A stretch of 35,972 nucleotides of DNA from a virus (Duplodnaviria; Caudoviricetes), in the IMG/VR virus record IMGVR_UViG_3300012953_006567, positions 1-35,972 of that record. One strand, written 5' to 3'. The notes under the pieces were generated by a model. The model worked only from the letters and a program-made list of their open reading frames with translations, did not search any database and was not told the DNA's origin. Positions 12,839 through 32,895 of this stretch are shown one piece after another. How positions within the stretch are numbered: the first letter of the stretch is position 1; each line of letters opens with the position of its first letter. The translations under genes were made by a program, and so were the position numbers.

Positions 12839-12864
12839 TATATACATATATAAGTATATACTTA
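12839..12864 (-). promoter_or_regulatory. Putative phage promoter motif TATATATGTATATA plus overlapping 14-bp palindrome TAAGTATATACTTA
   Basis: The 14-mer at 12839-12852 is identical to 35127-35140; perfect palindrome at 12851-12864; intergenic. Confidence 0.55.
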
Positions 12865-13266: not shown

Positions 13267-14081
13267 TATACAACTGCCCTACCTTTCATTCTTTCCCAAT
13301 CTCTATTCTTTCTTACTTTATCATTTACACTAAGAACCGATTTTAATAACTCTGAATCAAACTCACTAACTATAGCTGAAACATCTTTAGGTAAACAATG
13401 TCCACCAAATCCACAATCACCATCGGGACCTGGAACTGCCCAATGTGATTTACCAAGTCTTTCATCATATGCTGAATACTCTACTACTTTATCATAATCA
13501 ATTCCTATCTTATCACATACTATTTTCATTTCATTTGCAAATGATACTTTGGTTGCAAGAAATGAATTAATAAAATATTTTACCATTTCAGCAGTTTTAC
13601 TTCCTGTCTTAACAATAGTTGCACTTGGAAATACCTTACTATAAACTTGTCTTAATTTATTAGTTCCTTTTCTTGTACCACCCAATATGATACGAGTCTG
13701 ATTTTTAAAATCTTCAAGAAAATTCATCTCGGTAAGAAACTCCGGATTGAATATAACATTTACATTTTTGTATTTTTTATGTAGTCTTTCAGTTGTACCG
13801 GGTGGTACCGTAGATTTAATTACCACGATTATCTTTCTATTACTTAACTCATCTATTTCTTTTACAACACTTTCTACCACCCCGGTATTGCAACTTCCGT
13901 TTCTATTCATTGGTGTTGGAACACATACAAATATGATATTACACCTCTCGACCATCTTACTTAGATCAGAGGTACTTTTATTTTTATCATACTTGTCATA
14001 AGTTTCTACATCATAATAAGATTCAAATCCCACCTTAATAGCAGTTCCTACATAACCCTGTCCTACTATTCCTATTTTCAT
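13266..14081 (-). CDS. UDP-glucose/GDP-mannose dehydrogenase family (short form)
   Basis: GIVGQGYVG, FVCVPTP, IKSTVPPGTT, NPEFL, AEMVKY, GFGGHCLPKD (catalytic Cys). Confidence 0.9.
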   Translation of the reverse strand: MKIGIVGQGYVGTAIKVGFESYYDVETYDKYDKNKSTSDLSKMVERCNIIFVCVPTPMNRNGSCNTGVVESVVKEIDELSNRKIIVVIKSTVPPGTTERLHKKYKNVNVIFNPEFLTEMNFLEDFKNQTRIILGGTRKGTNKLRQVYSKVFPSATIVKTGSKTAEMVKYFINSFLATKVSFANEMKIVCDKIGIDYDKVVEYSAYDERLGKSHWAVPGPDGDCGFGGHCLPKDVSAIVSEFDSELLKSVLSVNDKVRKNRDWERMKGRAVV

Positions 14082-16161: not shown

Positions 16162-16190
16162 AATTTACAAACAATTTTTAACAAAGTCAA
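16162..16190 (-). promoter_or_regulatory. Sigma70-like promoter
   Basis: TTGACT (16190-16185), 17 nt, TAAATT (16167-16162), followed by AGGAGA SD and ATG at 16137. Confidence 0.55.
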
Positions 16191-16783
16191 GTAATAATTT
16201 CATCAATAATACCATATTCTAAACATTCTTTTGCCGTCAAATATGTATCGTGTTGTGAAACCTTATCCCAAAACTCTTGGTCTTTATTTGTAACTTCTGC
16301 AAGTATTCTATTAATATTTTTTTGTAATTTTTTTAGATGGTCGGCTCCTTTTAGTACATCAGATGTTTTACCCGACTCAAATGCTGAACCCTCGTGAACC
16401 ATCACAGTGGAATTTGCGGTCATTGTTCTCTTACCAGTTCCACACGCAAGTATTACTGCTGCAGCTGACATTGCAGCCCCAAGACAATGTGTGTTGACCT
16501 TGATTGGTAGAGTTTTGAAATAATCAATTATTCCCAACATAGAATATACATCACCACCATATGATGCAATTACTAAATTTAATTCTTTAGCGTCATTGTA
16601 GTGTATCATACTATCAAATCTCGTCATTGTTGCATAAAGTGTGTCCTGTTCTATATCGTAAGTCAAATACATTGTATTTGTCTCTAAATCAATTCCCCAT
16701 TCCAATTGTTTAAATAGTTTTTGTGTGGTTGGGTGAACATTCGTCATACTGGCATAATTCACTTTTAATATTGGATCACTCAT
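16187..16783 (-). CDS. clpP: ClpP-like serine protease (paralog 2)
   Basis: IASYGGDV, GAAMSAA (Ser), VMVHE (His), DTYLTAKECLEYGIIDEI (Asp). Confidence 0.85.
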   Translation of the reverse strand: MSDPILKVNYASMTNVHPTTQKLFKQLEWGIDLETNTMYLTYDIEQDTLYATMTRFDSMIHYNDAKELNLVIASYGGDVYSMLGIIDYFKTLPIKVNTHCLGAAMSAAAVILACGTGKRTMTANSTVMVHEGSAFESGKTSDVLKGADHLKKLQKNINRILAEVTNKDQEFWDKVSQHDTYLTAKECLEYGIIDEIIT

Positions 16784-17874
16784 TTAATCTCCTTTTTAAA
16801 GACAAAAACTGGTTCATACTTATAACCTGCTCCCATCACGCTTGATAATGTTAATTGTAAGGAATCCTCTTGTATGAATCCTAATTCCTTAGAAATTTTT
16901 ACTGTTTCTTCTTCTATAAATTTATACTTTGGTGTGTTGGCAATGTTTATTAACATATAACCATTTTGTTTTAAACCAATGTAACAATTCTCTAATGTTT
17001 TTCGTAAAAAACCATTTACCCAACTATCTTCTGTTGAGTATTTTATATAACTTTGAGTTTCCTCATCTGAGTATTTCTCTGTATCGAAATAAGGTGGTGA
17101 GGTAAAACATAAATCGATTGATTCTTTTTTAGGAACGAAGTCCTCACTTCCTTGTTTATATATATCAACCTTTTTATTTATGTATGAGAAATCCTTGCAC
17201 ATTTTCATCAACCCATTGTAAGTTTGTGTGGATGGTTCAGTACCTATGTAGTGTTTGGTGTTTTTAGCGGATAAAAAACCTAACAATCGACCACCCCACC
17301 CACAACTCATATCTCGTATTACTCCATCACCACCATACTTTTCATATATAAGTTTGGCAGCAGTTGGTCTAAAATTACTCACGGATTGAGTACCACTGTA
17401 AATTTTTATTGATTGTCTTAGTCTATTTTCATGAAAAATATTTCTTTCCCCATTAGGATCCTCTCCCTTGTAGTGTTTCTGTTCCCACTTCCAACATTTT
17501 CTGATTGTTGATTTAAACATTTTATCATCATGAAATATATCCATTGGTGAGTTTTTAGCACTACCACATACCACTTCCCAAAAATGTGGAAAGTAAGTCC
17601 AACACAACCTCAAACCATGCATAGTTTGGATAATCTGATTATCCTTGAATATGGTATCCACATCAAACTTTCTCAGTTTCTTTAAATGGTCGTGTTTTTC
17701 TTCTTCACGAATTGTGTAATGAGGGAAACCATGCCTACGATAGTAATCAAATATGATTTCCACACCATACTCGATATCCACCACATCTATTGAATTAGTA
17801 ACCCTTTCAAACTCCAAGTCTTTCTCATCCACATCGATGAGTTTACCGAGAGTTTCGTAGTTTACTCTTGCCAT
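16780..17874 (-). CDS. Putative amino (N4C/N6A)-type DNA methyltransferase, paralog 3
   Basis: SNFRPTAAK, DMSCGWGGRLLG (motif I), FTSPPYF (motif IV), EKYS. Confidence 0.8.
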   Translation of the reverse strand: MARVNYETLGKLIDVDEKDLEFERVTNSIDVVDIEYGVEIIFDYYRRHGFPHYTIREEEKHDHLKKLRKFDVDTIFKDNQIIQTMHGLRLCWTYFPHFWEVVCGSAKNSPMDIFHDDKMFKSTIRKCWKWEQKHYKGEDPNGERNIFHENRLRQSIKIYSGTQSVSNFRPTAAKLIYEKYGGDGVIRDMSCGWGGRLLGFLSAKNTKHYIGTEPSTQTYNGLMKMCKDFSYINKKVDIYKQGSEDFVPKKESIDLCFTSPPYFDTEKYSDEETQSYIKYSTEDSWVNGFLRKTLENCYIGLKQNGYMLINIANTPKYKFIEEETVKISKELGFIQEDSLQLTLSSVMGAGYKYEPVFVFKKEIK

Positions 17875-18340: not shown

Positions 18341-19174
18341 TCAAATATCGAATTTATTTATGCCCTTTTCTACCCAATCCTTATCGGTCAATCTTTGATG
18401 TCCTCGTAGCCATAATTTTTCATGTTCTGATTTTGAAATTTTATCTTCTGTGATTTTTAAATTCAATTTTTTAATGAATGAATTAATCACATTACTATCG
18501 AATTCTTTTTGATTAATATTAGGATTCTTTTCTAACAACCCACCGATAACATCCGAAACATCTCCTTCAAATTTCAAATTGTCCACTTCTTCATCTCTTA
18601 AATACATAGATTTCAATGTTTTTTTATAATCTAAGTCTCGTATTTTATTTGCTAAATCTGTATGTAGTGAATAACTAATAGCAACACTTGTTTCTACCCA
18701 ATCAAAAACAGATATCTTACCATTACCAATGGCCTTTTTCCATTTACCATCAATCTTGAACAAAGTATCATTTCTACCACTTTGTTTGGTTTCAATACCA
18801 TATTTACCACACTCTTTACTAACCGTATCGATTAATAAATCAAGAGTTTTATCAGGTTCAAGTTTACTGAACAATGTTATGTTGGTGATTTGTGGGCCTT
18901 CAAGGTAGAAAGCTATATTTTCATTTGGAGTTTCTCTCCAATTATCCTCAACTAATATTGTTGCATCAAAGGTTCGTATTTTATCTTCTAATTTTTCTAA
19001 AATGTGTGTTAAATCAGTTGGATAGATACCAAAAAATGTTGCAGTTTCTTTCTCCAATGACCAACGAATCAAAGTTGGTTGTTCGATTTCTACTATATGC
19101 TGGTATTCCCAAATTCCTACATGAACCTCTGGTGAAACCAATCCCAAGTCTACATATCTAACTTGATTTTCCAT
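18341..19174 (-). CDS. Divergent lipoate-protein ligase (BPL/LplA/LipB superfamily)-like protein
   Basis: N-terminal YVDLG, PTLIRW, GRND...KKAIGNG (conserved Lys). Lacks the RRxSGGG motif. ORF track extends to 19216. Confidence 0.6.
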   Translation of the reverse strand: MENQVRYVDLGLVSPEVHVGIWEYQHIVEIEQPTLIRWSLEKETATFFGIYPTDLTHILEKLEDKIRTFDATILVEDNWRETPNENIAFYLEGPQITNITLFSKLEPDKTLDLLIDTVSKECGKYGIETKQSGRNDTLFKIDGKWKKAIGNGKISVFDWVETSVAISYSLHTDLANKIRDLDYKKTLKSMYLRDEEVDNLKFEGDVSDVIGGLLEKNPNINQKEFDSNVINSFIKKLNLKITEDKISKSEHEKLWLRGHQRLTDKDWVEKGINKFDI

Positions 19175-19637
19175 TCCATTCAGAATAGTCGGTATAATCT
19201 TCGAATAATTCCTCACCTTTGACTATATCACGGTTGGATACATACTTGAAATCCCTACTACCAATTACCTCTACATCAAGGTTTGGTGTATCAGAATGAT
19301 TTTGAAAGAACCAATTGGATTGCCAATTCAAACCTTTGGTCGTGTACATCCATATCTTACCATATTCTTCTTTCCAAGTGAAGTCTTTATTGTTTGGTTT
19401 TGTTCCAACACTAATTTGAGTATCGTAGATACATTGAATTAACCCATCACAAAAGTGTGAAACATCTTTCCAATCCACCCATACTCGAATACTCCTATCA
19501 CATTTATCATACACACTTGTACCTTTTGGAATATCTCTAATTGCAACACTACCAACTCCATCACATATTGTTGATGGCCAAGGACGAGCCCATATGTGAT
19601 TTTCGTACCAGTCTATAACAAAATCCTTATTGGTCAT
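19158..19637 (-). CDS. SET domain protein (lysine methyltransferase fold)
   Basis: GVGSVAIRDIPKGT, FQNHSDTPN, RDIVKGEELFEDY. ORF track extends to 19655. Confidence 0.88.
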   Translation of the reverse strand: MTNKDFVIDWYENHIWARPWPSTICDGVGSVAIRDIPKGTSVYDKCDRSIRVWVDWKDVSHFCDGLIQCIYDTQISVGTKPNNKDFTWKEEYGKIWMYTTKGLNWQSNWFFQNHSDTPNLDVEVIGSRDFKYVSNRDIVKGEELFEDYTDYSEWNGKSS

Positions 19638-20535
19638 ACACCACTTCTTTTTCATTGTAGATTAGATATATACCACTTGAAATTAAAAGTAATCCAAATA
19701 TTTGCCATAATGATGGAGTCATGGTTAGAAAGAAATAACCGAGTGATACTCCAAATATAGGTGTTCCTAATTCAACAATACTTGTATTAGTTGCACCAAT
19801 ATTCTTTACCGCTATCCAATAACAAAGATAAGCGATAAAACTTGCCACTACTGAAATGTAAGTGATTGCAAGTAATCCGTTAAATGTAACTTCTGAAATC
19901 GTTGTAGTGGGTGATTGAAATAATGAAACATAAACAAACACACTCAAAAAATCATAAAATACAATTGTAAGTGGTTTGTACTTTTTCATAATACCTTGTC
20001 CTACTATGAGATAGGCTACCCAAGTCAAACAGGCTGCAACATCTAATAACACACCTTTAGTGTTTAGACCTTCAAGTGAGAATGATGGTATCAATTCAAT
20101 GGCAAACATACAACCGAGTGTTCCCAATCCTAATGCAATCTTCCTATTATTACTAAATTTCTCCCCATAGTAAAATATGGAAATCAAACATAGTATGAAT
20201 GGATACATATAAAATATTGCATAAATCACAGGTAGGTTCGGGTCAAGTAATTCCCAAGCAAACCAATACACCAATAAGTGTGCTGCAAGTATTACACCAT
20301 TGATAAAAAATTGTTTTCTATCTTCCTTCTCAACATAAAACAAATTTTCGCCTGTTGTTTGTTTCTTCCATAACATCACCCCACCAAACAATAATGTGGC
20401 GATTAGAAATCTAACCGATAGAACTGATACGGGTCCTGCTCCTTCTGCAAATATAAAACTACCAGTTACTTCGAGAGTTGACCAAGCGAATACTGCAGTC
20501 GCTATTGCTATAAATCCTTTTAAAAATTTATTCAT
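19627..20535 (-). CDS. EamA/DMT family transporter
   Basis: About 10 hydrophobic segments in two repeats; VRFLIA, Y-x-YP, IGATNTSI, P-IFG motifs. Confidence 0.88.
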   Translation of the reverse strand: MNKFLKGFIAIATAVFAWSTLEVTGSFIFAEGAGPVSVLSVRFLIATLLFGGVMLWKKQTTGENLFYVEKEDRKQFFINGVILAAHLLVYWFAWELLDPNLPVIYAIFYMYPFILCLISIFYYGEKFSNNRKIALGLGTLGCMFAIELIPSFSLEGLNTKGVLLDVAACLTWVAYLIVGQGIMKKYKPLTIVFYDFLSVFVYVSLFQSPTTTISEVTFNGLLAITYISVVASFIAYLCYWIAVKNIGATNTSIVELGTPIFGVSLGYFFLTMTPSLWQIFGLLLISSGIYLIYNEKEVVYDQ

Positions 20536-21403
20536 TTTCTTTTCCTACCTTTAAAGTAAAACCATAATACAATTTAACCTTTAAATCACCTTCTCCACTT
20601 AATTCAGCAGAAACAAATTGATTGGATTCTCCATACTGATACACAACACCATAAAGTGCTTGTGTTTCATCTTCGGTTCTTTCCAAACCACCAATTAGTC
20701 CTAAACCTTTTAGATGCCACATATTAGGTAGTCTAATAACGGCTCTTCCCCATTGATAATCTTCTCTAAATTCTGTAACATAATCTACAAACTCACTATA
20801 TCCACTTATATCAAGTGCCTGTTTGTTTTGGTCATCAAGTGATACACCAACAAAGTGATCACCAAACTCATAACTCACACGACCTGATGTGTATTCCTCG
20901 AATCCATTTTCTATATCACTACCGTAATAGCTTTCTAAGAACCACTTACCAACTCCACCATAGATAGTAACACCATCTCCAAAATATAACAAACCAACAT
21001 CGTTAGGTGTTGGTGTTTGATAGGTAAATTTATCACCTCTTGTTAAATCCAAATATGGAACATTAGAACCAAATGGAATTGGTTGTCTACCCAAAACAAC
21101 CGTGAACTTATCGGTATAAGGTTTGTAGTATAACTCCTCGACATAAACACTACCTCTCGCCCAAGGTGCGTCCAAGAACATCGATATTCCCCACTTTGAA
21201 TCATCGCCCTTTATGAATGACCAAACATATGGCTTCTCAAAAACAAAATGGTCTTTATATTCATCACCATTTCTATCATCACTACCTTCTGGATCATATT
21301 TCTCACTAATCGTAGTGTATCCTACTATACTATTTTTGATTGTTGCCATCTGTGAAAATCCAACGGTAAAAAAACATAATAGTATAGTTACTATTTTATT
21401 CAT
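20528..21403 (-). CDS. Secreted protein, probable outer-membrane beta-barrel (porin-like)
   Basis: Signal peptide MNKIVTILLCFFTVGFS/Q; VEELYY..VVLGRQPIPFG; alternating aromatic/Gly strands; ends YYGFTLKV plus a short tail. Confidence 0.6.
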   Translation of the reverse strand: MNKIVTILLCFFTVGFSQMATIKNSIVGYTTISEKYDPEGSDDRNGDEYKDHFVFEKPYVWSFIKGDDSKWGISMFLDAPWARGSVYVEELYYKPYTDKFTVVLGRQPIPFGSNVPYLDLTRGDKFTYQTPTPNDVGLLYFGDGVTIYGGVGKWFLESYYGSDIENGFEEYTSGRVSYEFGDHFVGVSLDDQNKQALDISGYSEFVDYVTEFREDYQWGRAVIRLPNMWHLKGLGLIGGLERTEDETQALYGVVYQYGESNQFVSAELSGEGDLKVKLYYGFTLKVGKENE

Positions 21404-21920
21404 AACTAAACTCCATGTTTATAGATATTCTATATTCCTTCCCATATATAAAATTTGTTGTATGGTATAACCAATTTGGAAAAACAACCAATGAATTTTC
21501 AATCGGTCTATGTGAAAACTCGTTAGATTCTTCTTTGAATGTTATCTCACCCCCAACCATACCTTTTGGTACACTTAGATAGTACACCCCAACCATACTA
21601 TCCGAAGTAGTGATGTGATTGTGCCAATTTAACGGACAATAATCTTCATTATTCACCATAGGGAAATATCGTCTTTTGTATGAAATTGGTCTATCATAAG
21701 TATCAAAGTTATCCTTACAAAACTCAATAAATTTAGCGTACAAATCTTTGAATATTCCCTCATCAGTATCGGTCATTACATTGTAACCAGCATTATCAAA
21801 CACTTCATTATAGTAGATTTCAACGATGTTTTTCCTTGAAACTTCTATTGGTGAGTTTTTGAAATCCAAAAAATTTAACTCTTGATATACAGGTAAACTA
21901 TTATGTATTTGTTTCATCAA
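21396..21920 (-). CDS. Putative 2OG-Fe(II) oxygenase
   Basis: WHNH, GVYYL, GGEI, FPNWLYH, RISINM. Confidence 0.8.
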   Translation of the reverse strand: MMKQIHNSLPVYQELNFLDFKNSPIEVSRKNIVEIYYNEVFDNAGYNVMTDTDEGIFKDLYAKFIEFCKDNFDTYDRPISYKRRYFPMVNNEDYCPLNWHNHITTSDSMVGVYYLSVPKGMVGGEITFKEESNEFSHRPIENSLVVFPNWLYHTTNFIYGKEYRISINMEFSYE

Positions 21921-22614
21921 GTTTTCTCAATTCTTCTATGTTAGGAATTAATTCATATGTTTTATCTGTTTTGTAACACTTTTCCGATACCATCAAATCA
22001 CCAATAATATCATTTAGAAAAGTGTCCTCAACATCAATATCTAACTTTCCTAATAAATCACAAAAATTGTTACGATGTTTATCAGTATAACTATTTCTCG
22101 AAAATAAATCCTCATAACTATACACTATAAAATCATCATCTATAAAATTTAAAAAATATCCCATTTTATCTCTTACATCATCTATTTTTTGTCTTACAAT
22201 ATCAACATCTATCTCATTAAATTCATATCCACTTTTATAAACTTTATGTCGACCAATTGGTGCAACCCAATGATTGGTTTGTATTGCAAGTTCTTCTGAT
22301 ATAACCTTTTCCCAAATGTTTTCCCTATGTAATAAAATCTTCTGAATTGGATAATCTAATAATTCATCTATTATATTGAAAAATGCTGGTTCGTCCCAAT
22401 TTATCTTACATCCACTATATTGGTCAAATAATTCATTCAAACACCAAGTTGAATTATAATCCCAAATATTTTTTGGAAATGGTAAATCAAATTGTTTCCA
22501 AGTTCTTGGTGGTGCATCAAACCAAACAAATTTTTTATTACTCAATTGACTTATAGCATTCATCAGATGATTCGAACCTGTCCTTTTCATCGACAATAAC
22601 ATAAATTTATTCAC
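21901..22614 (-). CDS. Sulfotransferase (Stf0-like)
   Basis: 5'-PSB loop MKRTGSNHL, 3'-PB R-x-N...S (HRENIWEKVIS), YEDL. Confidence 0.8.
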   Translation of the reverse strand: MNKFMLLSMKRTGSNHLMNAISQLSNKKFVWFDAPPRTWKQFDLPFPKNIWDYNSTWCLNELFDQYSGCKINWDEPAFFNIIDELLDYPIQKILLHRENIWEKVISEELAIQTNHWVAPIGRHKVYKSGYEFNEIDVDIVRQKIDDVRDKMGYFLNFIDDDFIVYSYEDLFSRNSYTDKHRNNFCDLLGKLDIDVEDTFLNDIIGDLMVSEKCYKTDKTYELIPNIEELRKLDETNT

Positions 22615-23026
22615 TTACAAATCCACACCTTAAAACTATTTCATGACTTGGTTTATTCCATTCATCAATCTGTGACCATATAAAATCATGTTTTAGTTTA
22701 GAAATGTTAAGAATATACCACATCATTTGTATACCATAACCTGCACCTCTTTGTGATTTCTCCACATATAAATTTTTACATTCTTTTGTGTTATTGTCCA
22801 TCCAAACCCAACCATCACAATTTTTTAAATTTAAGAAATCCCAACCATTATTTAATCTATGTTCAGCATCGTCTACATTCCACATCAAATCCCAATTCAA
22901 CTCTGATTGAAATTTCTCAATGGACTTTTCCAATTTGTACTTATTTATTTCTCTTACATATTCTACATTATGTACATTTGGACAGAATGTGTAATCTTCT
23001 AAGTATCGTGTGTATTTAATCATCAA
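22607..23026 (-). CDS. GNAT family acetyltransferase
   Basis: LYVEKSQRGAGYG (motif A), N-x-PS...GF (motif B). Confidence 0.75.
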   Translation of the reverse strand: MMIKYTRYLEDYTFCPNVHNVEYVREINKYKLEKSIEKFQSELNWDLMWNVDDAEHRLNNGWDFLNLKNCDGWVWMDNNTKECKNLYVEKSQRGAGYGIQMMWYILNISKLKHDFIWSQIDEWNKPSHEIVLRCGFVSE

Positions 23027-23660
23027 AAAATGAATCTAAATATTCAGACTTTCTATCATCCTCAGTTTTACTGGGCAATCCAAGAAATTTTCTCTTATCA
23101 TACTTGTATTCACTAAATTCACCATTCTTTCTAACATAATGTATGAATAACTGAACACATTCGTAACCTGAAAAAGGTAATCTCCAATGATTCATCGTTG
23201 TACCTGAGTAAAAACACATATCACCCATTTCAAGAATAATAGATTTGGATGGTGATGATCTTGCAGATTCCTCAAACCCCTCTGGTCCATACTTTTCAAA
23301 GTCGTACTTTTGCATCATAATAGGCCACTTTTTATCGAAATATATCGGTAAGGTAGCACTAAATTCACAAGAGGGTCTATCACAATGTGGTTCTAAAATA
23401 TCACCTTTGTTGTAGATTCTCAAAAAGGTATAACAAGGATACAACTCCTCACCAATTACACTTTCGGCTATCGGTAGAGTCCACTTCAATATAGCATCAT
23501 TTAATGTATCACCATACATTGTGATGGTACCAGGTACCTGTTGGGCATCTAAATCGAACTCACTGTTGTGTATTTTTATCTGATAATAATTGTATATTAA
23601 TTCGAGTACATCTTTGTGTATAACATTACTCTTGACTTCATAACCATTTTTACTGAACAC
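23016..23660 (-). CDS. 2OG-Fe(II) oxygenase (phage type)
   Basis: RIYNKGDILEPHCDRPSCEFS (HxD), GDM..Y.G...HWR, QLFIHY. Confidence 0.82.
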   Translation of the reverse strand: MFSKNGYEVKSNVIHKDVLELIYNYYQIKIHNSEFDLDAQQVPGTITMYGDTLNDAILKWTLPIAESVIGEELYPCYTFLRIYNKGDILEPHCDRPSCEFSATLPIYFDKKWPIMMQKYDFEKYGPEGFEESARSSPSKSIILEMGDMCFYSGTTMNHWRLPFSGYECVQLFIHYVRKNGEFSEYKYDKRKFLGLPSKTEDDRKSEYLDSFFDD

Positions 23661-23661
23661 A

Positions 23662-24153
23662 TTAACTCCAAGGTGGTATTACATAAGGTCCTTCTGATGA
23701 AGTTGCCGGTACTAAATAACTCTCGGTCAAAACCTCATCTTCAAAATGACGATATTTGTAGTAGGAACCCGTATCATAATTTGAATTGAATGAATGAGTT
23801 GCTTCGGTATCCTCTATTGCCAAGGTGTAGACCTCTTCGAAATGAGATTGACTCATATGAGAAGCACTCACCATAAGGGTTGCTAAACCATCATCTAACT
23901 CATTTTTCCACCAAGACCAACTGCCTGTTAAATCAGTAACATTATCAAATGTATGAATTACTTGTCTTGCTGCCACACATGGTTTTTGGTCTACTATATC
24001 TGCTATAGCTATTGGGGGCATAAAAGAACCACTTGGTGGTGGATATCCGTAATCAATAGGTTCATCGGACAAGTAAACACTACCTGATTCATCAACTTGA
24101 ATTGATGAGGTGTTCATTAGTAGATGACCCGATATCTTAAATGTTTTTGGCAT
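23662..24153 (-). CDS. Hypothetical acidic protein with many [S/T]-x-S motifs
   Basis: 163 aa, AGGA SD; TSSI, SGSV, SGSF, TGSW, SASH, SQSH, THSF, TGSY, TESY, TSSE. Confidence 0.7.
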   Translation of the reverse strand: MPKTFKISGHLLMNTSSIQVDESGSVYLSDEPIDYGYPPPSGSFMPPIAIADIVDQKPCVAARQVIHTFDNVTDLTGSWSWWKNELDDGLATLMVSASHMSQSHFEEVYTLAIEDTEATHSFNSNYDTGSYYKYRHFEDEVLTESYLVPATSSEGPYVIPPWS

Positions 24154-24165
24154 ATTTAATTCCTA

Positions 24166-26835
24166 TTAATTTTCAAATTGACCACCCTCATGGTAGGCTC
24201 GATTATTAGGATGACCACTATTAATATTTACCGCCATTGCTCCAACTTGAGCTGAAGGTAAAACCGTATCCCAAATCAAAACCTTAGACCATATCCAATC
24301 CCCATCTGAACTCGATGGATTCGGATACGCATTACCACCAAACGATACGGTATTACTTGGTGCCCGTGGATTTGATTGTGGTGTTGGAAAAGCGTGAGTG
24401 GTTTGCATCACACCAGCTACAAACGGACTTGGTTGGTCGAAATCTTGATACCATCCCACACGAGGATTTGATGATTGTAGAGTCAACGCCATAAATTTTT
24501 GTTTAGCATAATATTGTGTGGTTTTGGGTGATGGTATGGCAAATGCTGCATCAGCAAAAGGTGCTGCATCAAATCCAACAGGTACGGTTTGCCAAGTTTG
24601 AGAAGGACCTAAATACACATAGGTTTGTGCTCCTGGTCCTGATTGACCTGGATAAACTGCCATATCACCATTTGTACTCGGTGAGTGACTCATCCATCTT
24701 CTCCGAGTTGGTGAGTTTGGGTAATGTGTGTTCGTGCCTGGCCAACTACCTGGTCTGATATATGGGCCTCTTGCATATGCAAACATATATGTTGTTGGAT
24801 CCTGAGAACTAAATAATGCACCGGTATGATAGGGATTACCTGGCTGTTTAGTCAATCTGGCTCCCTTGTAATTCTCAGGTAAAGGTATAGCTTTAAACTC
24901 AGGATTTGGATACTTTGGTTGAATAGCTGGATAGTTTGAAATTGTTTGATTTGCCTTTTGATTTGGACTCGATGAAGTAGTCGTGTGTATGGTTAAGTCA
25001 GCATCCAACCTCGTTGTTAAATCATATATGGTGTTATCAGGACTTGAAAAACTACTTGGGTGACCAATATCCCAATGTCCTATTATCTGTGGGCCACTTG
25101 TGAGACTATATTGTGCCGGGCCATTGTGTACTTTTAACCGATTCATAAAGTAATTCTCGGTGGGTAAAATATCGTAAATATCCCAATGTGATTTTTTACC
25201 AGGTACTTCTTTCATACTCACTACCCTACACGGTACCATTGCACCATAAAGAGCCTGTGTGATTTTCATATCCTTTCTCTTCGGTGTAAGACAAATCATA
25301 CCAGGTCTCAACTTCATTACCATCATGTTCTTCACTTCGTAGGTAAGTTCAGGTTTGTAAGAAGCCCAACCATAAGTGGGTTTATCCTTTTTTATACCAG
25401 CCTCATTATGAGTTCCAAATATTTCCTTACCATCGGTTCTATCCATACGAATATTAAACTCTTGTGAGTTTATCACCTTTAATGGTTTTTCAAATAAAAA
25501 TTCACTTGTGAAGTAAGTTCCACTACACTCGAATGTTATCTCCACAACCCTTTCTGGCATTTCTGAATCTTTTGCCCTTGCAAGTATTGCAGAAACTATC
25601 TTGTCCTCTTCACTACTCAGAACAGATTGACCTTCCAATGGATTTGTTATTATACCATCGATTCCACTAATAAAATTATCTGATTTTGCCTGTATTTGAA
25701 ATCCGTGATAATTTAAAGAGTTGTCTAATGTTGTAATACCCTTTACTCTTCTTCGTTCTTTGATGATTTCAATCTTTTCTACCTTTACTTTCTCACCATC
25801 TCGAAGTAAAACATCACCTACTTTCAATAGATGAATAGGTTTGAAATCACCCCTATTATTTTGATACACCAATATTGAACACGAATGGACGAACTCAAAT
25901 TCGTCATTTATTTTAAAATGTCTGTAATGAAATGGATGTACCCTTTCGATTTCCTTATTTATAATGTTTTCATCTACCTCATCATTCAAGAATAAGTTGG
26001 AATGGTCTATTCTGTTTGGAAACTTTGAATTTTCGTGTTCGTGATAATCGTATAATTGAGTATAAACATTTGGAGTCATGTTGTAGGAGTGCTTACGAAA
26101 CATCATTGAGTAATGTTTTACCTCCACATTAAAGCCCGTTTGATAGTCTAAATCACTCTGTATAAACTCTTCCACATAATCATACTCGGATAATTTAGAC
26201 AAAAAGTCTTTTTTGGTATCGAATTTAGATATAGATATACCACTCTTCTTATCTATGTCGCGTTTTTTGAAAACAAAGTACTTCCCTTTCTCATAAATAT
26301 CTTTACCTGAATCCGGAGTAGAAAGAGATTCTTTTTGTAAAAGTCTTTTGAATGCCAACTTATCTTCTGCAAACTTATCAATTGGACAATTTTTATCCCA
26401 AGCAATTCTTAATATGAAATCTCTTCTATCATAATCAAAATTCCATATATCTTCCCCCTTCCAAGGATCATATGTTTGTATTCTTACAGGTGTGTCTTTA
26501 CTTAATAATTGTAACTCCTTGAACCACTTTCCATTTTCAGTAATTTCTCGTGTTCTTTCTTCAATTAAAACAATTATACTTTTATACTCCCACTTCTTCA
26601 CAATTTCAAATATTGGATTGAAGTCGAACCAATCCACTAAATCATCATCAACTGCGGTATTAGTGTTTATTTCTGTAATATATGGTTCGTATTCTCTTGG
26701 AATTATATCCCAGCAATACAATAACGCTTCATTTCTTTTGAGAAAACTTTTATCTCTGAGAAAGAAATGTTCAATATGATCTACTGAATTGTGAACGATG
26801 TGCTTGTAAACTATTTTATCAAATATACTTTTCAT
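24166..26835 (-). CDS. Multidomain protein: circularly permuted ATP-grasp-like + Hint domain(s) + Pro-rich LamG/ConA-like domain
   Basis: D43...EINTNT, FVFKK...GISI, VEEFI; KPIHLLKVGDVLL; GWASYKPELT...NYFMNRLKVHN (N571); then IGHWDIGHPSSF...IYDLT and SKVLIWDTVLPSAQV. Confidence 0.65.
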   Translation of the reverse strand: MKSIFDKIVYKHIVHNSVDHIEHFFLRDKSFLKRNEALLYCWDIIPREYEPYITEINTNTAVDDDLVDWFDFNPIFEIVKKWEYKSIIVLIEERTREITENGKWFKELQLLSKDTPVRIQTYDPWKGEDIWNFDYDRRDFILRIAWDKNCPIDKFAEDKLAFKRLLQKESLSTPDSGKDIYEKGKYFVFKKRDIDKKSGISISKFDTKKDFLSKLSEYDYVEEFIQSDLDYQTGFNVEVKHYSMMFRKHSYNMTPNVYTQLYDYHEHENSKFPNRIDHSNLFLNDEVDENIINKEIERVHPFHYRHFKINDEFEFVHSCSILVYQNNRGDFKPIHLLKVGDVLLRDGEKVKVEKIEIIKERRRVKGITTLDNSLNYHGFQIQAKSDNFISGIDGIITNPLEGQSVLSSEEDKIVSAILARAKDSEMPERVVEITFECSGTYFTSEFLFEKPLKVINSQEFNIRMDRTDGKEIFGTHNEAGIKKDKPTYGWASYKPELTYEVKNMMVMKLRPGMICLTPKRKDMKITQALYGAMVPCRVVSMKEVPGKKSHWDIYDILPTENYFMNRLKVHNGPAQYSLTSGPQIIGHWDIGHPSSFSSPDNTIYDLTTRLDADLTIHTTTSSSPNQKANQTISNYPAIQPKYPNPEFKAIPLPENYKGARLTKQPGNPYHTGALFSSQDPTTYMFAYARGPYIRPGSWPGTNTHYPNSPTRRRWMSHSPSTNGDMAVYPGQSGPGAQTYVYLGPSQTWQTVPVGFDAAPFADAAFAIPSPKTTQYYAKQKFMALTLQSSNPRVGWYQDFDQPSPFVAGVMQTTHAFPTPQSNPRAPSNTVSFGGNAYPNPSSSDGDWIWSKVLIWDTVLPSAQVGAMAVNINSGHPNNRAYHEGGQFEN

Positions 26836-26838
26836 ATC

Positions 26839-26850
26839 TATAAATATATA
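26839..26850 (-). promoter_or_regulatory. Putative phage promoter TATATATTTATA, 3 nt before ATG
   Basis: One mismatch to the motif at 12841 and 35129; in a 30-nt intergenic gap with no SD. Confidence 0.5.
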
Positions 26851-26865
26851 TTATTACGAAAAATG

Positions 26866-27501
26866 TTATTTAAAACATGGGCCGTGTATCCAAGTAACTA
26901 TTGAATATCGGTTTCCCTTTGTTACAGGTTTGACTGCATGCATTAAATATGAAGGAAAAAATATTATAGTTCCCGCAGTTTTAGGATAGTGGATTATATC
27001 AGTTCCATCGTGATTTTTACCCACTCCATCAAATACTAATTCACCACCTTCATAATCATCATTTACTAATATTGTACAGGATAGTTTTCTAAAACACGAT
27101 GGTGCTGCTCCACCGACATCCATATGAAAATCGTATTTTCCTTTTTCATTACTATCGTATCTTAGATATATTGAGGTTTCAAGAAATCCGTGTAAATCAA
27201 ACCCATAAACATTCTGATTGGCACTCCAAACCAATTCCTCTAACTTTTGATAAAACCAGTCAAATTCTCTTATGTGTGGTATTGGGGTTTCATATGCAAC
27301 TCTTTCAGAATCCTCGCCCCTTTGACCAAAACTAGCATCTCCATGAGTAAGAGCAGGGGTTTCTTCTAAATCCCCAATCTTTAAAAGTTGCTTTAACCTT
27401 TTTAACTCGAATTCATTATATGCACCCTCAATAGCAAATGGGAAACTCAATTCTCTCTGTGAGAGTTCCATAGTTTTTGATAATATTCCAGCTCTTAACA
27501 T
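26866..27501 (-). CDS. 2OG-Fe(II) oxygenase, prolyl 4-hydroxylase/PKHD-type
   Basis: YDFHMD (HxD), RKLS, YEGGEL, FPSYLMHAVKPVTKGNRYSIVTW. Confidence 0.9.
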   Translation of the reverse strand: MLRAGILSKTMELSQRELSFPFAIEGAYNEFELKRLKQLLKIGDLEETPALTHGDASFGQRGEDSERVAYETPIPHIREFDWFYQKLEELVWSANQNVYGFDLHGFLETSIYLRYDSNEKGKYDFHMDVGGAAPSCFRKLSCTILVNDDYEGGELVFDGVGKNHDGTDIIHYPKTAGTIIFFPSYLMHAVKPVTKGNRYSIVTWIHGPCFK

Positions 27502-27954
27502 TTAATTCTCCAATTTAATTTCTTTATATTTTTTCTTTTCATGTTCTGAGACATCCAACCTCCATTCAAAATCAGGTTTCATACTCACATCGAATACACT
27601 ATCGAAAATAAATAAAGATTTATCCGACATTGGTTTATGTTCGATTACTCGTTTGGTGAAAAAACCACCCTTCCATAACTGAAAGGTCAAAAATTGATGA
27701 GTTTTCTCTTGGGATTTCTCGTAATAAAATATTTTGGTATTGTATTTTTCATCATCGAACTTATAGTAAATAGATTTACCCAATCTTCTTTCCGTTTCCC
27801 TTGAAAAATCCTTTAAGTGTGATTCTATTAATCCGATAAACAATTCATTATTCTGATAATTATCTTCTTTAATCAAATCATCTAATAAGAAATTGTCTCG
27901 GCAAAAATATATTAACGAACCTATTACATTTGGAACTACTTGATATGGATTCAT
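27502..27954 (-). CDS. Hypothetical protein
   Basis: ATGA-coupled ORF (ORF track extends to 27972); no recognised motif. Confidence 0.6.
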   Translation of the reverse strand: MNPYQVVPNVIGSLIYFCRDNFLLDDLIKEDNYQNNELFIGLIESHLKDFSRETERRLGKSIYYKFDDEKYNTKIFYYEKSQEKTHQFLTFQLWKGGFFTKRVIEHKPMSDKSLFIFDSVFDVSMKPDFEWRLDVSEHEKKKYKEIKLEN

Positions 27955-28487
27955 ATCGTGTTTCCTGCACAAACATATCTTGAACCTGAGAATTTTTTAG
28001 GTTTCACTTCATGTGATACCCAACCAGGAAAAAATAATAAATTACCTCTTTCACTATATATTTTTCTACCATCTTGTATTTCTAATGGTGGAAAATCTTC
28101 GGATTCATTTAGGTTCATACAAAAAGACCACCTACAAGGTCTATGATTGTGTTCTCTTGCATAATCATCACTCTTATATTTAGCACACCAGATATCCGAA
28201 ACTTTAAGGTGTAACTTATTTTCAATCAATATGTTCTCAACGATACCTATCATATCTTCGAAAATATCCTTATATTTAGAATTTAGTTGTGTTTTATATT
28301 CTGTCATCTGACAGAAAAGATTTGTGGTAAACCCCATTTCATCACCAGTCTCATCCATCATTGATATTAACGAATCAAGTAATATATCATCATTTACTTT
28401 ATACTTGATTATTGGTATTGGAAATGACCTTTCATACCAACCAACATCAGGTGTAATACACTCTATTCTATGTTCCGAGTCCGACAT
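27951..28487 (-). CDS. Putative 2OG-Fe(II) oxygenase
   Basis: W...Y...AREHNH, WSF, LLFFPGWVSHEV, RYVCAGN. Confidence 0.8.
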   Translation of the reverse strand: MSDSEHRIECITPDVGWYERSFPIPIIKYKVNDDILLDSLISMMDETGDEMGFTTNLFCQMTEYKTQLNSKYKDIFEDMIGIVENILIENKLHLKVSDIWCAKYKSDDYAREHNHRPCRWSFCMNLNESEDFPPLEIQDGRKIYSERGNLLFFPGWVSHEVKPKKFSGSRYVCAGNTI

Positions 28488-28737: not shown

Positions 28738-29346
28738 TTAAATTATTTCGTCAATTAACCCATACTTTAAACAGGTTTCAGCATCCCATAATAAATCGTG
28801 TTTCAATATTTCATCAAGTTTCTTCATTGGAACTTTAGTATATTTCTTATACACATCTTTAATGGTTTTCATCATCAAATCAAGATTCTGTTTCTCATCC
28901 TCGAAATTAGAGTATGTTCCCCAAAACTGACTTGATAGTTGATGAATCAGCATATAGGAATTACGACTCATAAATCTATAATTACCCACCACCGATAGGA
29001 ATGTTGCTGCACTTGCTGCAAATCCATCTACATATGTATGAACAGGTACCTTAGTTCTTAATATAGTATCCATAGATGCTATACCACTAACTACACTACC
29101 ACCACCTGAATTTATGTATATTCTTAAAGTTGGTGGTACTTCTAAATCCAATGTATTACATAGAGTCAAACTCTTCGTTTCAATTTCACCTATCTTTTTA
29201 TTAAGTTCAGATGCACTATCTCTATTCACATTTGAATAATAATAAATTTTATTCTCGTGAACTGAAATATGTTTTTCTGATTTATTAGAGGTATTTACAG
29301 TTTTTAATGTGGGTGATTTTTTCTCACCCCAATATCTTTGTTCCAT
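28738..29346 (-). CDS. clpP: ClpP-like serine protease (paralog 1)
   Basis: YINSGGGSV, GFAASAA (Ser), MLIHQ (His), DLLWDAETCLKYGLIDEI. Confidence 0.88.
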   Translation of the reverse strand: MEQRYWGEKKSPTLKTVNTSNKSEKHISVHENKIYYYSNVNRDSASELNKKIGEIETKSLTLCNTLDLEVPPTLRIYINSGGGSVVSGIASMDTILRTKVPVHTYVDGFAASAATFLSVVGNYRFMSRNSYMLIHQLSSQFWGTYSNFEDEKQNLDLMMKTIKDVYKKYTKVPMKKLDEILKHDLLWDAETCLKYGLIDEII

Positions 29347-29561: not shown

Positions 29562-30479
29562 TTATTTAACTATTTGTAAAATTTCTATTAACATAGCCAT
29601 CGCGTTAATTTCCTTATCCACAACTTGAGCATCGGATAATTCATATTTTGCTATAACCAATATACATTCGGCCACATGACCTCTACCATAAATATCCACT
29701 TCATCATACAAAAGACGAAATAAATCTGCAAAATCCGTAACCTTACTATCTGCCATTAACTGACGAATATTCTTAAATGCATTTTTCTTATCTTGTGTTT
29801 TGAGAATATCTAACAACTTCATCTTGTAATCATTCTCCACAATACTCTGCTTATCAATTGTTAATTTACCACCAAGTGATTGTCTTTGTGCACCATTGAT
29901 AACTCGTCTGATATCTGGATAACCACTATTGACCAACATTTTTAAATCTTCCATCTCATATTTTATACTTTCATCGGTCAAAATATTATGTAAATGTTTT
30001 GCAACATCATTTTTATTTGGTGGTATAACTTGAAATATTTGACACCGTGATTGTATCGGGTCGATTATTCTCTCGACAAAATTACAAGTCAAGATGAACC
30101 TACAATGTTTACTAAATGTTTCCATTAGGTTACGAAGTGCTGCCTGAGAGTGTGGACTTATAAAATCAACCTCATCTAAGATTATGATTTTCATATCTTG
30201 AAATCCTATCGTTGATGCAAAGTTTCTAACCTTTGGTATCAAATCATCGACTCTTCTTACATCAGATGCGTTAATGTATAGATGGTCACAATTTATGTTA
30301 TTCATAAGTAGTTTTGCCAATGTCGTTTTACCTGTACCAGCCTTACCAAATAACATCAAGTGTGGAATATCACCACTATCTAAATATACTTTAACCTTCT
30401 CTTTTAATTGTTCATTACCAATATATGTATCAAGATTACTTGGTCTATATTTTTCTACCCAAAGGGTGTGATCATTCAT
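29562..30479 (-). CDS. Clamp loader large subunit (T4 gp44 / RFC small-subunit-like AAA+ ATPase)
   Basis: LWVEKYRP, GKAGTGKTT (Walker A), INASD, ILDEVD (Walker B), SRC motif. Start at the ATGA overlap (ORF track 30497). Confidence 0.93.
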   Translation of the reverse strand: MNDHTLWVEKYRPSNLDTYIGNEQLKEKVKVYLDSGDIPHLMLFGKAGTGKTTLAKLLMNNINCDHLYINASDVRRVDDLIPKVRNFASTIGFQDMKIIILDEVDFISPHSQAALRNLMETFSKHCRFILTCNFVERIIDPIQSRCQIFQVIPPNKNDVAKHLHNILTDESIKYEMEDLKMLVNSGYPDIRRVINGAQRQSLGGKLTIDKQSIVENDYKMKLLDILKTQDKKNAFKNIRQLMADSKVTDFADLFRLLYDEVDIYGRGHVAECILVIAKYELSDAQVVDKEINAMAMLIEILQIVK

Positions 30480-31690
30480 ATTTTTTTCCATATCCAAATT
30501 GGTTCTCCAAATGCCTGGTTTTTAGTTTCTTGTGATTTCTCTTTAAGGTCATCCGAGTAGTAATCACTAACAGCGTTTCCAGCTCCTGCTGAATTGAATC
30601 TCTTAGTCATCTCCATTCCTATACAACCCTCGTATTTTAATCCTTGTGACTTTATATAGTCATTCATAGCGTTTGTTATATCAACATAACCCTTTACGGA
30701 TTCATGATAAACATCTGCTATATTTACGGCAAGTATACCATCCTTCTTTAATGTAGGTATCAACTTACCGATTGTTTTGTGTAGGAAATTTTCATTCCAA
30801 CTATCTATCGTGGTATACCTTTTAAAACTTTGGGTATCCTCGTCACTATACTTCTCCACATCAAAATAAGGTGGTGAAGTAAATATGGTATCGAAATGAT
30901 TTTCATAATCTTTATAGTCCACATCTTCTGCTGGACTACATATCAAATCGACTTTCTTCTCTTCTTCAAAAAATGTTTGATGTTTTTTGTAAAACTCTAC
31001 TTGTCTCTTATAGTTAGGGTGGTTTTTTGAATTAGGATCTATCCCAACATAATGTTTGGTAGTTTCCCCACAATAGAAACCTGCCAACCTGTCTCCCCAA
31101 CCAGCACTAAAATCAAGTACATTTTCACTCTCGAAATAATCATAGAATGCCTTTGCTATACTTGGTTTGAATTGTGATGCTACATACTTTCTCAAAGTTG
31201 TGGCCATTCTAAGAGTTTGTAAATCAACCTTGAGTAAGACCTTTTCTAATGTGTAGTATGCCCTTACTATGGTTTTAATTCCCTTTACAGTTTGCCATGT
31301 TTTCCATCCACTTGGCATCCTTGTCCAATCAACCTTCCATCTATTCTCTATATGAAACGGATTAGATGCGTTATTTCCCTTATTATCTCGTTTGAAATAT
31401 TTCGGTGTTAATTGATACTTAGTATCTCTTTCGTTTCTCGGAAACCATTGACCTTCTATTAGTAAATCAGGCCATTTGATTCCCTTGAGTTTGTTGAGAC
31501 TTTTTAATGTGTCCTTTTCGGATATATTAGGTACAGGACAAGGATAAGTATGAAGTGCCTTTGATAACTCCTCAATCACATCATCCTTTTCATATGTATC
31601 CATTATATGTTTCCATTCTTTTGCATCTATGAAAAGATATGGTTTCATATTATAAAACTTCTTAAAATAACTCTCTATGTCTTTTTCCAT
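30476..31690 (-). CDS. Putative amino (N4C/N6A)-type DNA methyltransferase, paralog 2
   Basis: SQFKPSIAK, LDFSAGWGDRLAG, FTSPPYF. ORF track extends to 31696. Confidence 0.82.
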   Translation of the reverse strand: MEKDIESYFKKFYNMKPYLFIDAKEWKHIMDTYEKDDVIEELSKALHTYPCPVPNISEKDTLKSLNKLKGIKWPDLLIEGQWFPRNERDTKYQLTPKYFKRDNKGNNASNPFHIENRWKVDWTRMPSGWKTWQTVKGIKTIVRAYYTLEKVLLKVDLQTLRMATTLRKYVASQFKPSIAKAFYDYFESENVLDFSAGWGDRLAGFYCGETTKHYVGIDPNSKNHPNYKRQVEFYKKHQTFFEEEKKVDLICSPAEDVDYKDYENHFDTIFTSPPYFDVEKYSDEDTQSFKRYTTIDSWNENFLHKTIGKLIPTLKKDGILAVNIADVYHESVKGYVDITNAMNDYIKSQGLKYEGCIGMEMTKRFNSAGAGNAVSDYYSDDLKEKSQETKNQAFGEPIWIWKKI

Positions 31691-32895
31691 ACCCAAATAG
31701 GTTCTCCGAATTTTTTATCTTCTTTATTTTCAAGTGATTTTTCTGTCCACACAGAACCCTCATAACTTTTTGCCGTTCCAGCTCCACCACTATTAGGTCG
31801 TTTGGCCATTTCCATTCCAATACAACCTTGATACTCTCCTAACTTGGATAAGTAGTCATTCATAGGATTACAAATCTCTAACCAACCCCTTTCGGTACTC
31901 CATTTAGCATTTGAATAAACATCACTAATATTCACTAATAAATATCCACCAACTTTTATAGAATCCCATAAATTACCCAAGGTCGAATGTAAGAAATCTT
32001 TGTTCCAATCATCTATATCTTTGTATCTAACCCAACTTTGAGTATCATCATAGCTATAGCGTTCCACACTAAAGTACGGTGGACTCGTAAATACCATATC
32101 GAAATGTTCTTTGTACGGGGCGAAATCAAAATCTTCCGCGGGACTACAATGAAAATCACACTTTCTATCGTGTTCAAAAAATCCCAAATGTTTTTGGTAA
32201 AACTCTGATTGTTTCTTGTAGATAGGGTGATTCTCCTTTCTTGGATCCAAACCAACATAGTGTTTACCATGTTCACTTGCATAAAATCCAGCCAACCTAT
32301 CACCCCATCCCATTGAGAAATCAAGTATGTTTTCAGACTTGAACATATCATAAATTATCTTTGCTACATTAGGTTTAAACTGAGAACAAATATACTTTCT
32401 CAACCCAATCATGGTTCTCAATATATTCTTGGTAATCTTAGGCATCTTCAATGAGTAAGCACTACCCATGAGTGTCGTCATAAACTTTTCACTTTCCCAA
32501 GTTCTCTTAGGACCTGGACTTACTGAACCATCTACTGACCATCTATTTTCTACTTGGAAGTAGTTACTTGCAATATTACCAGCATTGAGTCGTCTAAAAT
32601 ATAATGGTTTCCCATCGTGTAGTAAATCATATGTGTATTCAGTTCCCTCTCTAGCATACCATTCACCCTCAACCATAATTTCATTCCACTTCATACCTTT
32701 GAGTTTTTGGAAATCTTTATATGCCTTCTTTTCGGTCAAATCAGGATATGGTAATGGATAGGTCATTGCAACTTTAGCAAGACTTTCTTTTACATCATCC
32801 TTGTCGAATGTTTCCTTTATGTACTCCCAATCCTTTTCATCTATTTCGAGATAGGGCTCCATATTATAAAATTTATCAAAGTAATCTATATACAT
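31675..32895 (-). CDS. Putative amino (N4C/N6A)-type DNA methyltransferase, paralog 1
   Basis: SQFKPNVAK, LDFSMGWGDRLAG, FTSPPYF. Confidence 0.82.
   Translation of the reverse strand: MYIDYFDKFYNMEPYLEIDEKDWEYIKETFDKDDVKESLAKVAMTYPLPYPDLTEKKAYKDFQKLKGMKWNEIMVEGEWYAREGTEYTYDLLHDGKPLYFRRLNAGNIASNYFQVENRWSVDGSVSPGPKRTWESEKFMTTLMGSAYSLKMPKITKNILRTMIGLRKYICSQFKPNVAKIIYDMFKSENILDFSMGWGDRLAGFYASEHGKHYVGLDPRKENHPIYKKQSEFYQKHLGFFEHDRKCDFHCSPAEDFDFAPYKEHFDMVFTSPPYFSVERYSYDDTQSWVRYKDIDDWNKDFLHSTLGNLWDSIKVGGYLLVNISDVYSNAKWSTERGWLEICNPMNDYLSKLGEYQGCIGMEMAKRPNSGGAGTAKSYEGSVWTEKSLENKEDKKFGEPIWVWKKT

Follow-up and report, generated by a model that had tools for sequence, protein, structure and literature searches.

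The question raised by this locus is whether a single phage protein can release a folded domain from itself and, furthermore, attach that domain to another molecule. The protein is encoded by an 889-amino-acid (aa) open reading frame (ORF) of a large, uncultured marine phage, in the virus record IMGVR_UViG_3300012953_006567, a linear stretch of 35,972 bases (approximately 15% complete by estimate) that is referred to in its entirety as the window. A four-domain architecture is well supported by models and comprises a circularly permuted ATP-grasp ligase, two consecutive Hint domains (Hint1 and Hint2), and a predicted LamG/concanavalin A (ConA) cargo. The protein probably cleaves itself once, at N571, freeing the cargo with an N-terminal Gly, and a subsequent attachment of the cargo through Gly572 by the ligase is proposed tentatively. 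The parts are known singly; the union of ligase, Hints, and lectin-fold cargo appears to be new, and the phage family undescribed. A literature search, conducted mostly outside subscription journals, found no description of an ATP-grasp–Hint–cargo fusion.

Domain architecture of the 889-aa protein

No domain of the 889-aa protein was named at cut-off by Pfam, PHROGs, or NCBIfam, the weak Pfam matches being to ATP-grasp_3 (E value 0.053) and AXH (E value 0.0012), and profile searches of Protein Data Bank (PDB) sequences gave nothing useful. With residues 1–580 as the query, 30 relatives were found among 7,994 candidates; alignment A1 of this two-Hint clade comprises the query and 29 relatives, with one 95% identical copy left out. 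The full-length AlphaFold model has a mean predicted local distance difference test (pLDDT) score of 68. Because Hint2 is poorly folded in this model (pLDDT below 50 at residues 390–427 and 549–574), the Hints were refolded on their own (pLDDT 78) with an alignment of 36 rows.

The ligase model matches YgiC (PDB 7uka) over residues 2–283 (VIA Z 12.8, root-mean-square deviation (rmsd) 4.2, 237 aligned) and GspS (2io7; VIA Z 12.0); glutathione synthetases were also matched, and 1m0w was found by Foldseek with an E value of 5.5e-5. The nearest folds of the Hints are the VidaL intein (6vgv) for Hint1 (VIA Z 11.0, rmsd 2.2, 103 aligned) and the bacterial intein-like domain (BIL) BIL2 (6y75) for Hint2 (VIA Z 16.3, rmsd 2.1, 138 aligned). 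Two checks are independent of the refolding alignment, which contained canonical Hints: comparison by hhalign with 37 canonical Hints gave 95.7% for Hint1 and 97.2% for Hint2, and in the Atlas's own low-confidence model, built without that alignment, the nearest rows for residues 380–600 are mostly Hint/intein clusters. The cargo is modeled as a LamG/ConA β-sandwich, i.e., a predicted lectin fold, and matches the tailspike of cyanopodophage Pan3 (9vyh; VIA Z 18.3, rmsd 3.8, 241 aligned, 9% identity) as well as phage LamG proteins in BFVD. Fold matches to sialidases and to botulinum binding domains were discounted as reflecting the common LamG fold alone. In P0028, alone among the 29 cargos, the C-terminal end is a Peptidase_S74 fiber chaperone (E value 1.1e-6), and such chaperones are typical of fibers and spikes. 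A search for free-standing cargo relatives among 410 shorter candidates yielded three matches, all apparent fragments of the same family.

Columns conserved to at least 95% in the clade alignment number 73 of 185 in Hint2, 46 of 275 in the ligase, 6 of 105 in Hint1, and 21 of 309 in the cargo; Hint2 is the most conserved domain, and the cargo is the least conserved. At the junction with the cargo, the Pro+Ser+Gly+Thr fraction rises from 0.11–0.24 to 0.39 and that of charged residues falls from about 0.3 to 0.12. The G+C content at third codon positions stays flat at 0.26–0.31 across the gene; the compositional switch therefore lies in the amino acids, with no sign of foreign DNA, and a recent foreign origin of the cargo was ruled out. 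A first-pass annotation, made from the sequence alone, had already delimited this ORF and proposed an ATP-grasp domain, a tandem Hint, and a LamG-like tail, and per-segment profile and structure searches recovered all four folds, an agreement that exceeds chance. The order of motifs is as it described (D..EINTN, K..G, EEFI), with D43..E55-I-N57-T-N59 followed by K159, K190..G199, and E222-E-F-I. The junction that it placed between positions 25123 and 25122 is right, the N571 codon being 25125–25123, and the predicted 318-aa tail of ~34 kDa, with its abrupt Pro/Ser/Gly/Thr switch, is recovered at 34.7 kDa. The term polyprotein is apt for two products at most, Hint1 having lost the His-Asn that a further product would need.

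Catalytic residues and the pattern in the wider family

In the ligase, D43, E55, N57, K159, K190, D195, and G199 are invariant in 27 of 27 clade rows and E222 in 28 of 28, and the Asp/Glu/Asn ligands are kept in all 66 wider relatives described below. D43, E55, N57, K159, and K190 correspond by motif, without superposition, to Asp-330, Glu-344, Asn-346, Lys-513, and Lys-548 of trypanothione synthetase, which forms an acylphosphate that is then attacked by an amine (excerpt of PMC2427367). The model of residues 1–275 is consistent with a permuted ATP-grasp domain that carries the metal and phosphate ligands, and amide formation is the predicted reaction. As glycine serves as the amine substrate of glutathione synthetase (excerpt of PMC2845819), an N-terminal Gly is a plausible nucleophile. 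A 198–200 aa paralogue of the N-terminal part of the ligase alone lies a few genes upstream of the full protein in three loci (L015:1147–1749, L016:7201–7803, and L017:3163–3759); it keeps EINTN and stops soon after the K190 equivalent.

The Hints were compared with the residues given for inteins, i.e., Cys/Ser1, Thr B:7, His B:10, F:4, His F:13, His G:6, Asn G:7, and Cys/Ser/Thr+1 (excerpt of PMC4031507). Hint1 has N280 at position 1 by sequence spacing in 30 of 30 rows, with a Cys after N280, one place off by spacing, in 15 of 30; it has no TxxH and ends in A/T/S-K/Q where His-Asn is expected. In the 889-aa protein, it is also ~20 aa shorter than in most relatives. Hint1 is predicted not to cut. 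Position 1 of Hint2 is N387 by sequence alignment (30 of 30 rows); by structure, most superposition end points pair S385/D386 with intein residues 4/5, which leads to about Q382, inside the last strand of Hint1. The first-pass annotation had started Hint2 at DNFISG and remarked on a missing Cys there and on Gly at +1. The missing nucleophile is borne out, since neither register gives the 889-aa protein a Cys, Ser, or Thr at position 1 and G572 occupies +1 in 29 of 29 rows, whereas the start itself is ambiguous. H570, N571, G572, and P573 are invariant in 29 of 29 rows (one row ends earlier), and they are written in synonymous codons in 32 distinct DNA contexts, with both His, both Asn, and all four Gly codons in use. 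An insert at the block B/C loop of Hint2 (window 25360–25460, residues about 459–486) is well conserved apart from one subgroup, in which it is ~20 aa shorter.

These features set Hint2 apart from every splicing class. For class 1, position 1 is N387 or Q382, the TxxH motif reads LFEK450, and +1 is G572; for classes 2 and 3, +1 is Gly in 29 of 29 rows and F:4 is D/E/T/N. Splicing that joins ligase to lectin could still be envisaged, because a terminal His-Asn is also found in type A BILs, which are able to splice with no nucleophile at +1 (excerpt of PMC4031507), and the best fold match of Hint2 is a BIL. Nevertheless, the type A route depends on an N-terminal thioester, class 2 on Cys+1 together with His B:10, and class 3 on Cys F:4 (excerpt of PMC4031507), whereas Hint2 offers Asn or Gln at position 1, Lys at B:10, D/E/T/N at F:4, and Gly at +1. 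Of the type A features, it shares His-Asn without a +1 nucleophile and lacks the N-terminal thioester nucleophile; judged by sequence, it would work like the C-terminal step of a BIL without belonging to that group. As the position-1, block-B, F:4, and +1 features all fail, every splicing route is excluded by residue inventory and C-terminal cleavage is the sole reaction left; splicing by the 889-aa protein, as a type A BIL or a class 2/3 intein, is considered extremely improbable. The earlier prediction that the protein cleaves rather than splices agrees with the folds, with the residue inventory, and with the link between His-Asn and tail in the wider family.

This wider family was collected with a ligase-domain profile, which gave 140 representatives among 1.84 billion proteins; 136 were new, 68 of these are at least 430 aa long, and removal of two with an unrelated architecture leaves 66. 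The members join the ligase to a first Hint without Cys1. The chain either stops there or continues with a short stub, a Cys-rich peptide, up to three canonical Hints, an S74 chaperone, or a repeat domain. Among these rows, which are not independent of one another, 54 of the 57 with at least 5 tail residues retain His-Asn in the first Hint (one of the other three probably reflects a misplacement in the alignment), compared with none of the 9 with a shorter tail. In a quick tree, the label of His-Asn loss needs 4 changes, at least 3 of them forced by strong branches. TxxH is present in 3 of 54 first Hints versus 36 of 37 canonical Hints, and the block-F His is missing from the first-Hint consensus. 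Hints with His-Asn only are thus the norm in the wider family, with His-Asn following the cargo, which suggests that His-Asn serves release.

The two-Hint clade constitutes one side of a branch with support 100 in the same tree. Hint2 matches the first-Hint profile at 1.9% and canonical Hints at 97.2%; it therefore resembles the latter and has apparently reached the His-Asn-only state separately. A GW-S--P-LT motif is common to Hint2 and the complete second Hint of a ligase-Hint-Hint-repeat protein (loci L056–L060), which occupies the same slot after clamp loader and ClpP and has C39 peptidase, radical S-adenosylmethionine (SAM), sulfotransferase, and GNAT genes as neighbors. We infer from these sequences that Hint2 may have decayed to a cleavage-only state as Hint1 lost its His-Asn, restoring one cut between ligase-Hint and cargo. 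A swap of cargo behind the cleavage motif, suggested for checking by the first-pass annotation, is not seen inside the clade, where a LamG-like tail follows VHN/GP in 29 of 29 complete rows, but it is seen in the wider family, including the same genomic slot (L056–L060).

Further members of the family are recorded here as observations in their own right. A second member (L021:3301–4911) lies in the same island as an 892-aa orthologue and consists of the ligase, a single Hint without Cys1, HN/AAC, and a Cys-containing tail of ~70 aa; a glutaredoxin-sulfotransferase fusion gene follows it. In P0070, L066:6001–7953, L067:1488–3365, and L107:6001–7932, a Cys-rich peptide of ~30–40 aa is preceded by a cleavage-only Hint and followed by a complete Cys1 Hint that ends in HN/KK, an arrangement that we take to resemble engineered two-intein peptide release; 21 of the 37 canonical Hints have Lys at +1. 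Neighbors at 85 loci of the wider family include one 2-oxoglutarate (2OG)-oxygenase cluster (57), tryptophan halogenase (42), and radical SAM (15), and a ~95-aa Cys-motif gene (e.g., L100:5667–5954), with neither a blastp match in the window nor a Pfam match, is present at 68 of the 85.

Probable release of the cargo, its possible attachment, and rival explanations

The proposed course of events is as follows. The residues for N-terminal chemistry are missing from both Hints, and Hint1 is without His-Asn, so the ligase would stay joined to both Hints. His570 would assist cyclization of Asn571, yielding a 67.8 kDa ligase-Hint-Hint product and a 34.7 kDa domain starting with GPAQY. The ligase would then phosphorylate an acceptor carboxylate, to be attacked by the amine of Gly572; candidate acceptors are the 163-aa partner encoded downstream, a virion protein, or a product of the neighboring island of tailoring enzymes. 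This would leave an adhesin-like domain that is either N-acylated or anchored covalently. The cut at N571 is the part that we consider probable, and attachment through Gly572 has less than an even chance. Two other forms of joining were set aside: head-to-tail joining of cargo units, the C-termini being unconserved, and a C-terminal Lys as the nucleophile, a modest fit in the wider family (47 of 54 versus 311 of 513 neighboring ORFs) that is found in 1 of 29 clade members.

Several points weigh against release followed by attachment. The block-B His of Hint2 (B:10) is K450 in 30 of 30 rows, and the block-F His (F:13) is His in 1 of 30 and E560 in the 889-aa protein; the first-pass annotation, in basing cleavage on His-Asn, was correct about H570-N571 but overlooked these two losses, which lower the odds. 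The block-F His is called important for Asn cyclization, which is 200-fold faster after branching (excerpt of PMC7765530), and C-terminal cleavage depends on earlier steps in some inteins (excerpt of PMC4031507). Hint2 is conserved throughout, making the invariant His-Asn less telling inside the clade, and the refolding alignment held 12 wider-family rows with canonical Hints, a bias toward that fold. Regarding attachment, the carboxylate-aligning Arg (Arg-328 of trypanothione synthetase; excerpt of PMC2427367) is replaced by C/V/A/T at clade position 41, its equivalent being Arg in 2 of 66 wider relatives, and position 240 is Arg in 59 of 66 wider relatives but Lys in 29 of 29 clade rows; with the Arg-328 equivalent missing, the substrate site differs from that of trypanothione synthetase. 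At +1, 15 types of residue occur in the wider family (Gly in 2 of 54, Pro in 5 of 54), so an α-amine nucleophile is not general, and tail-less ligase-Hint proteins with the ligase residues kept also exist. Finally, the 889-aa gene lies among replication genes, away from structural genes, which speaks against a simple virion role of the cargo.

The same observations can be read in two other ways. If the cut at N571 only sets the lectin free to become a virion or surface component, the ligase would act elsewhere, on an island small molecule or a partner, and the fusion would only couple synthesis. HN/GP invariance and the link between His-Asn and tail serve this explanation equally; tail-less members retain the ligase residues, the 2OG-oxygenase, halogenase, and radical SAM neighbors resemble a small-molecule or peptide pathway, and the nearest folds, GspS, YgiC, and glutathione synthetase, are small-molecule or peptide amide ligases (in part after an excerpt of PMC2427367). 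The ligase-Hint-tail fusion is nevertheless kept across the family and apparently rebuilt in the clade with a different Hint, and the Gly-Pro after the cut is invariant although the rest of the cargo is so variable; we consider this explanation rather unlikely. It is about as unlikely, by a shade more so, that neither Hint cuts. Both would then be pseudo-Hint scaffolds in an intact 102 kDa ligase that the lectin carries to a glycan or surface, with Hint2 as a binding platform. In favor of this, the position-1 nucleophile and the block-B His are gone from Hint2, as is the block-F His in nearly all rows; the domain is conserved everywhere and has a truncated first hairpin and new inserts; the lack of a free-standing cargo relative and the retention of a Hint without His-Asn in tail-less members point the same way. 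What argues against scaffolds is that His-Asn tracks the tail in the wider family, and that Hint1 dropped His-Asn yet kept its fold, which shows that the fold does not need these residues.

Release at N571 followed by attachment is retained as the working proposal. Its fullest form is a one-gene phage conjugation system, in which a stripped Hint exposes Gly and the ATP-grasp domain bolts a lectin-fold adhesin onto the virion or a partner protein, the cleavage-only state having evolved twice as the job passed from Hint1 to Hint2; this form is speculative and clearly improbable as a whole. With a folded cargo of 35 kDa, both products would be visible on a gel, and the two-Hint clade is therefore easier to test than the relatives with short peptides. 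A true cut would mean a natural Hint that cleaves with His-Asn alone, testing how much of the intein active site Asn cyclization needs, and could yield a thiol-free self-cleaving tag. Should ligation hold, phages would possess an ATP-dependent means of fixing folded domains onto proteins, which would be novel in virion decoration and of use in protein engineering; the conjugation system would parallel sortase or ubiquitin-type tagging in function while being assembled from unrelated components.

Genomic setting and comparison with known systems

The features of the locus are listed in Table 1.

Table 1. Coordinates of the 889-aa gene, its predicted parts, and its neighbors in the window
Feature	Position	Strand	Remarks
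889-aa ORF	24166–26835	−	Four predicted domains: ATP-grasp, Hint1, Hint2, LamG/ConA
Predicted circularly permuted ATP-grasp, GspS/YgiC/eukaryotic glutathione synthetase fold, residues 1–275	26011–26835	−	Structure and invariant residues
Predicted Hint1, degenerate, residues 280–384	25684–25998	−	hhalign, structure, alignment A1
Predicted Hint2, residues 385–571	25123–25683	−	hhalign, structure, Atlas model, conservation
H570-N571/G572-P573, predicted single cleavage site	25117–25128	−	Bond between 25123 and 25122
Predicted LamG/concanavalin-A-fold cargo, residues 572–889 and stop	24166–25122	−	318 aa, 34.7 kDa, Pro/Ser/Gly/Thr-rich, without Cys
Acidic partner gene, 163 aa	23662–24153	−	Directly downstream of the 889-aa gene; conserved
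2OG-Fe(II) oxygenase, fixed neighbor	26866–27501	−	Directly upstream of the 889-aa gene; Pfam PF13640, E value 5e-14
Tailoring-enzyme island	18341–28487	−	Between two clamp-loader genes; Pfam/PHROGs, synteny

Nearly all long ORFs of the window are on the minus strand, and replication is represented by a family B polymerase, a sliding clamp, and two clamp-loader genes, together with ClpP-like genes (Pfam, PHROGs). The island holds four 2OG-oxygenase-like genes, GNAT, SET, and EamA genes, an LplA-like gene, and unknowns, and gene order around the 889-aa gene is broadly kept in 21 viral loci. The 2OG-Fe(II) oxygenase is upstream in all 39 loci with an upstream gene called (shared N-terminal pattern, blastp clusters). 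On the downstream side, 54 loci were examined, including the window and many near-copies; 10 were without a complete ORF and 4 without a called downstream gene. In 38 of the remaining 40, two of them judged by eye, the next gene is similar to the partner and encodes 132–170 aa. No family was assigned to the 163-aa partner, and its Atlas search scores were at most 0.80; two partner subgroups match at 93.8% by hhalign. Complex prediction of the partner with residues 1–835 scored 0.59 against 0.00 for the best of 3 controls (runs 0.59, 0.00, and 0.61), where 116 of 157 solved pairs and 2 of 215 mismatched pairs attain the mark for this score, 18 of the solved and both mismatched lying at or below 0.60. 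The runs share at least 0% of contacts, with a partner pLDDT of at least 58. The models hint that the partner might be a binder of, or acceptor for, the 889-aa protein.

Other genes of the window are noted as follows. A possible lipoate-ligase-like gene (18341–19216) has no PDB sequence match, and LplA-B_cat was matched weakly in 2 of 5 scanned relatives (E values 0.004 and 0.035). A 291-aa protein with a signal-peptide-like start and a porin-like pattern (20528–21403) adjoins EamA, with no Pfam match in the window copy or in four relatives. The island is flanked by two ClpP-like genes (16187–16783 and 28738–29346) and by three mutually similar genes (16780–17874, 30476–31696, and 31675–32895), which presumably resemble DNA methyltransferases, judging by an FTSPPY motif. 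Positions 206–13266 and 13266–14081 hold, by eye, sugar-nucleotide/glycosyltransferase-looking genes and a FabH-like gene, and this block could supply glycans relevant to the lectin cargo. Promoter-like sites in the window are at chance level (61 versus 60.3). All or part of the stretch is present in 20 of 24 listed metagenome runs; these come from 10 studies, all marine or aquatic, and no RNA dataset is listed among them. Two runs are flagged as possible sources of the DNA. A contig of run X3, near-identical and possibly the source of the record, covers window positions 23600–27600 unbroken with 7 differences, none listed in the 889-aa gene. Among 50,697 GenBank phage records, the 889-aa protein and one wider-family member have no match, and the sliding clamp matched just 2 distant records.

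Each part of the protein has a counterpart among known systems. Type A BILs, including BIL2 of the Tetrahymena BUBL1 locus (PDB 6y75, 6tmm), share the Hint fold, the terminal His-Asn, and the absence of Cys/Ser/Thr at +1, and cleavage products dominate in them (excerpt of PMC4031507); however, they form an N-terminal thioester and can ligate, whereas the phage Hint2 is without the position 1 nucleophile and the block-B His and has an ATP-grasp domain fused in front. Similarly, GspS, YgiC, trypanothione synthetase, and eukaryotic glutathione synthetase are alike in fold, in permuted motif order, and in the Asp/Glu/Asn and two Lys residues, although the phage protein lacks the Arg of R-x-D, has a smaller domain, carries the Hint/cargo fusion, is phage-encoded, and has no Pfam or NCBIfam match at cut-off. 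The cargo shares its fold with phage LamG/ConA virion proteins (the Pan3 tailspike 9vyh and structural proteins of S-PM2 and S-TIM5), but it is without a tail-anchoring N-terminal domain and stands behind a Hint, and a shared fold shows no function. In pretoxin HINT and Hedgehog proteins, too, a terminal module is set free by a Hint (some relatives exceed the cut-off of the PT-HINT and Hint models, and Hedgehog 1at0 matches at Z 14.2). Hedgehog autoprocessing uses Cys1 chemistry; furthermore, no toxin or immunity gene is seen here, and the partner enzyme is a predicted ATP-dependent ligase. Finally, cyanophage islands likewise combine tandem 2OG-dioxygenases with halogenase, sulfotransferase, and acetyltransferase genes, whereas the excerpt describing them (PMC2938197) mentions no ATP-grasp–Hint fusion of the kind encoded in this window.

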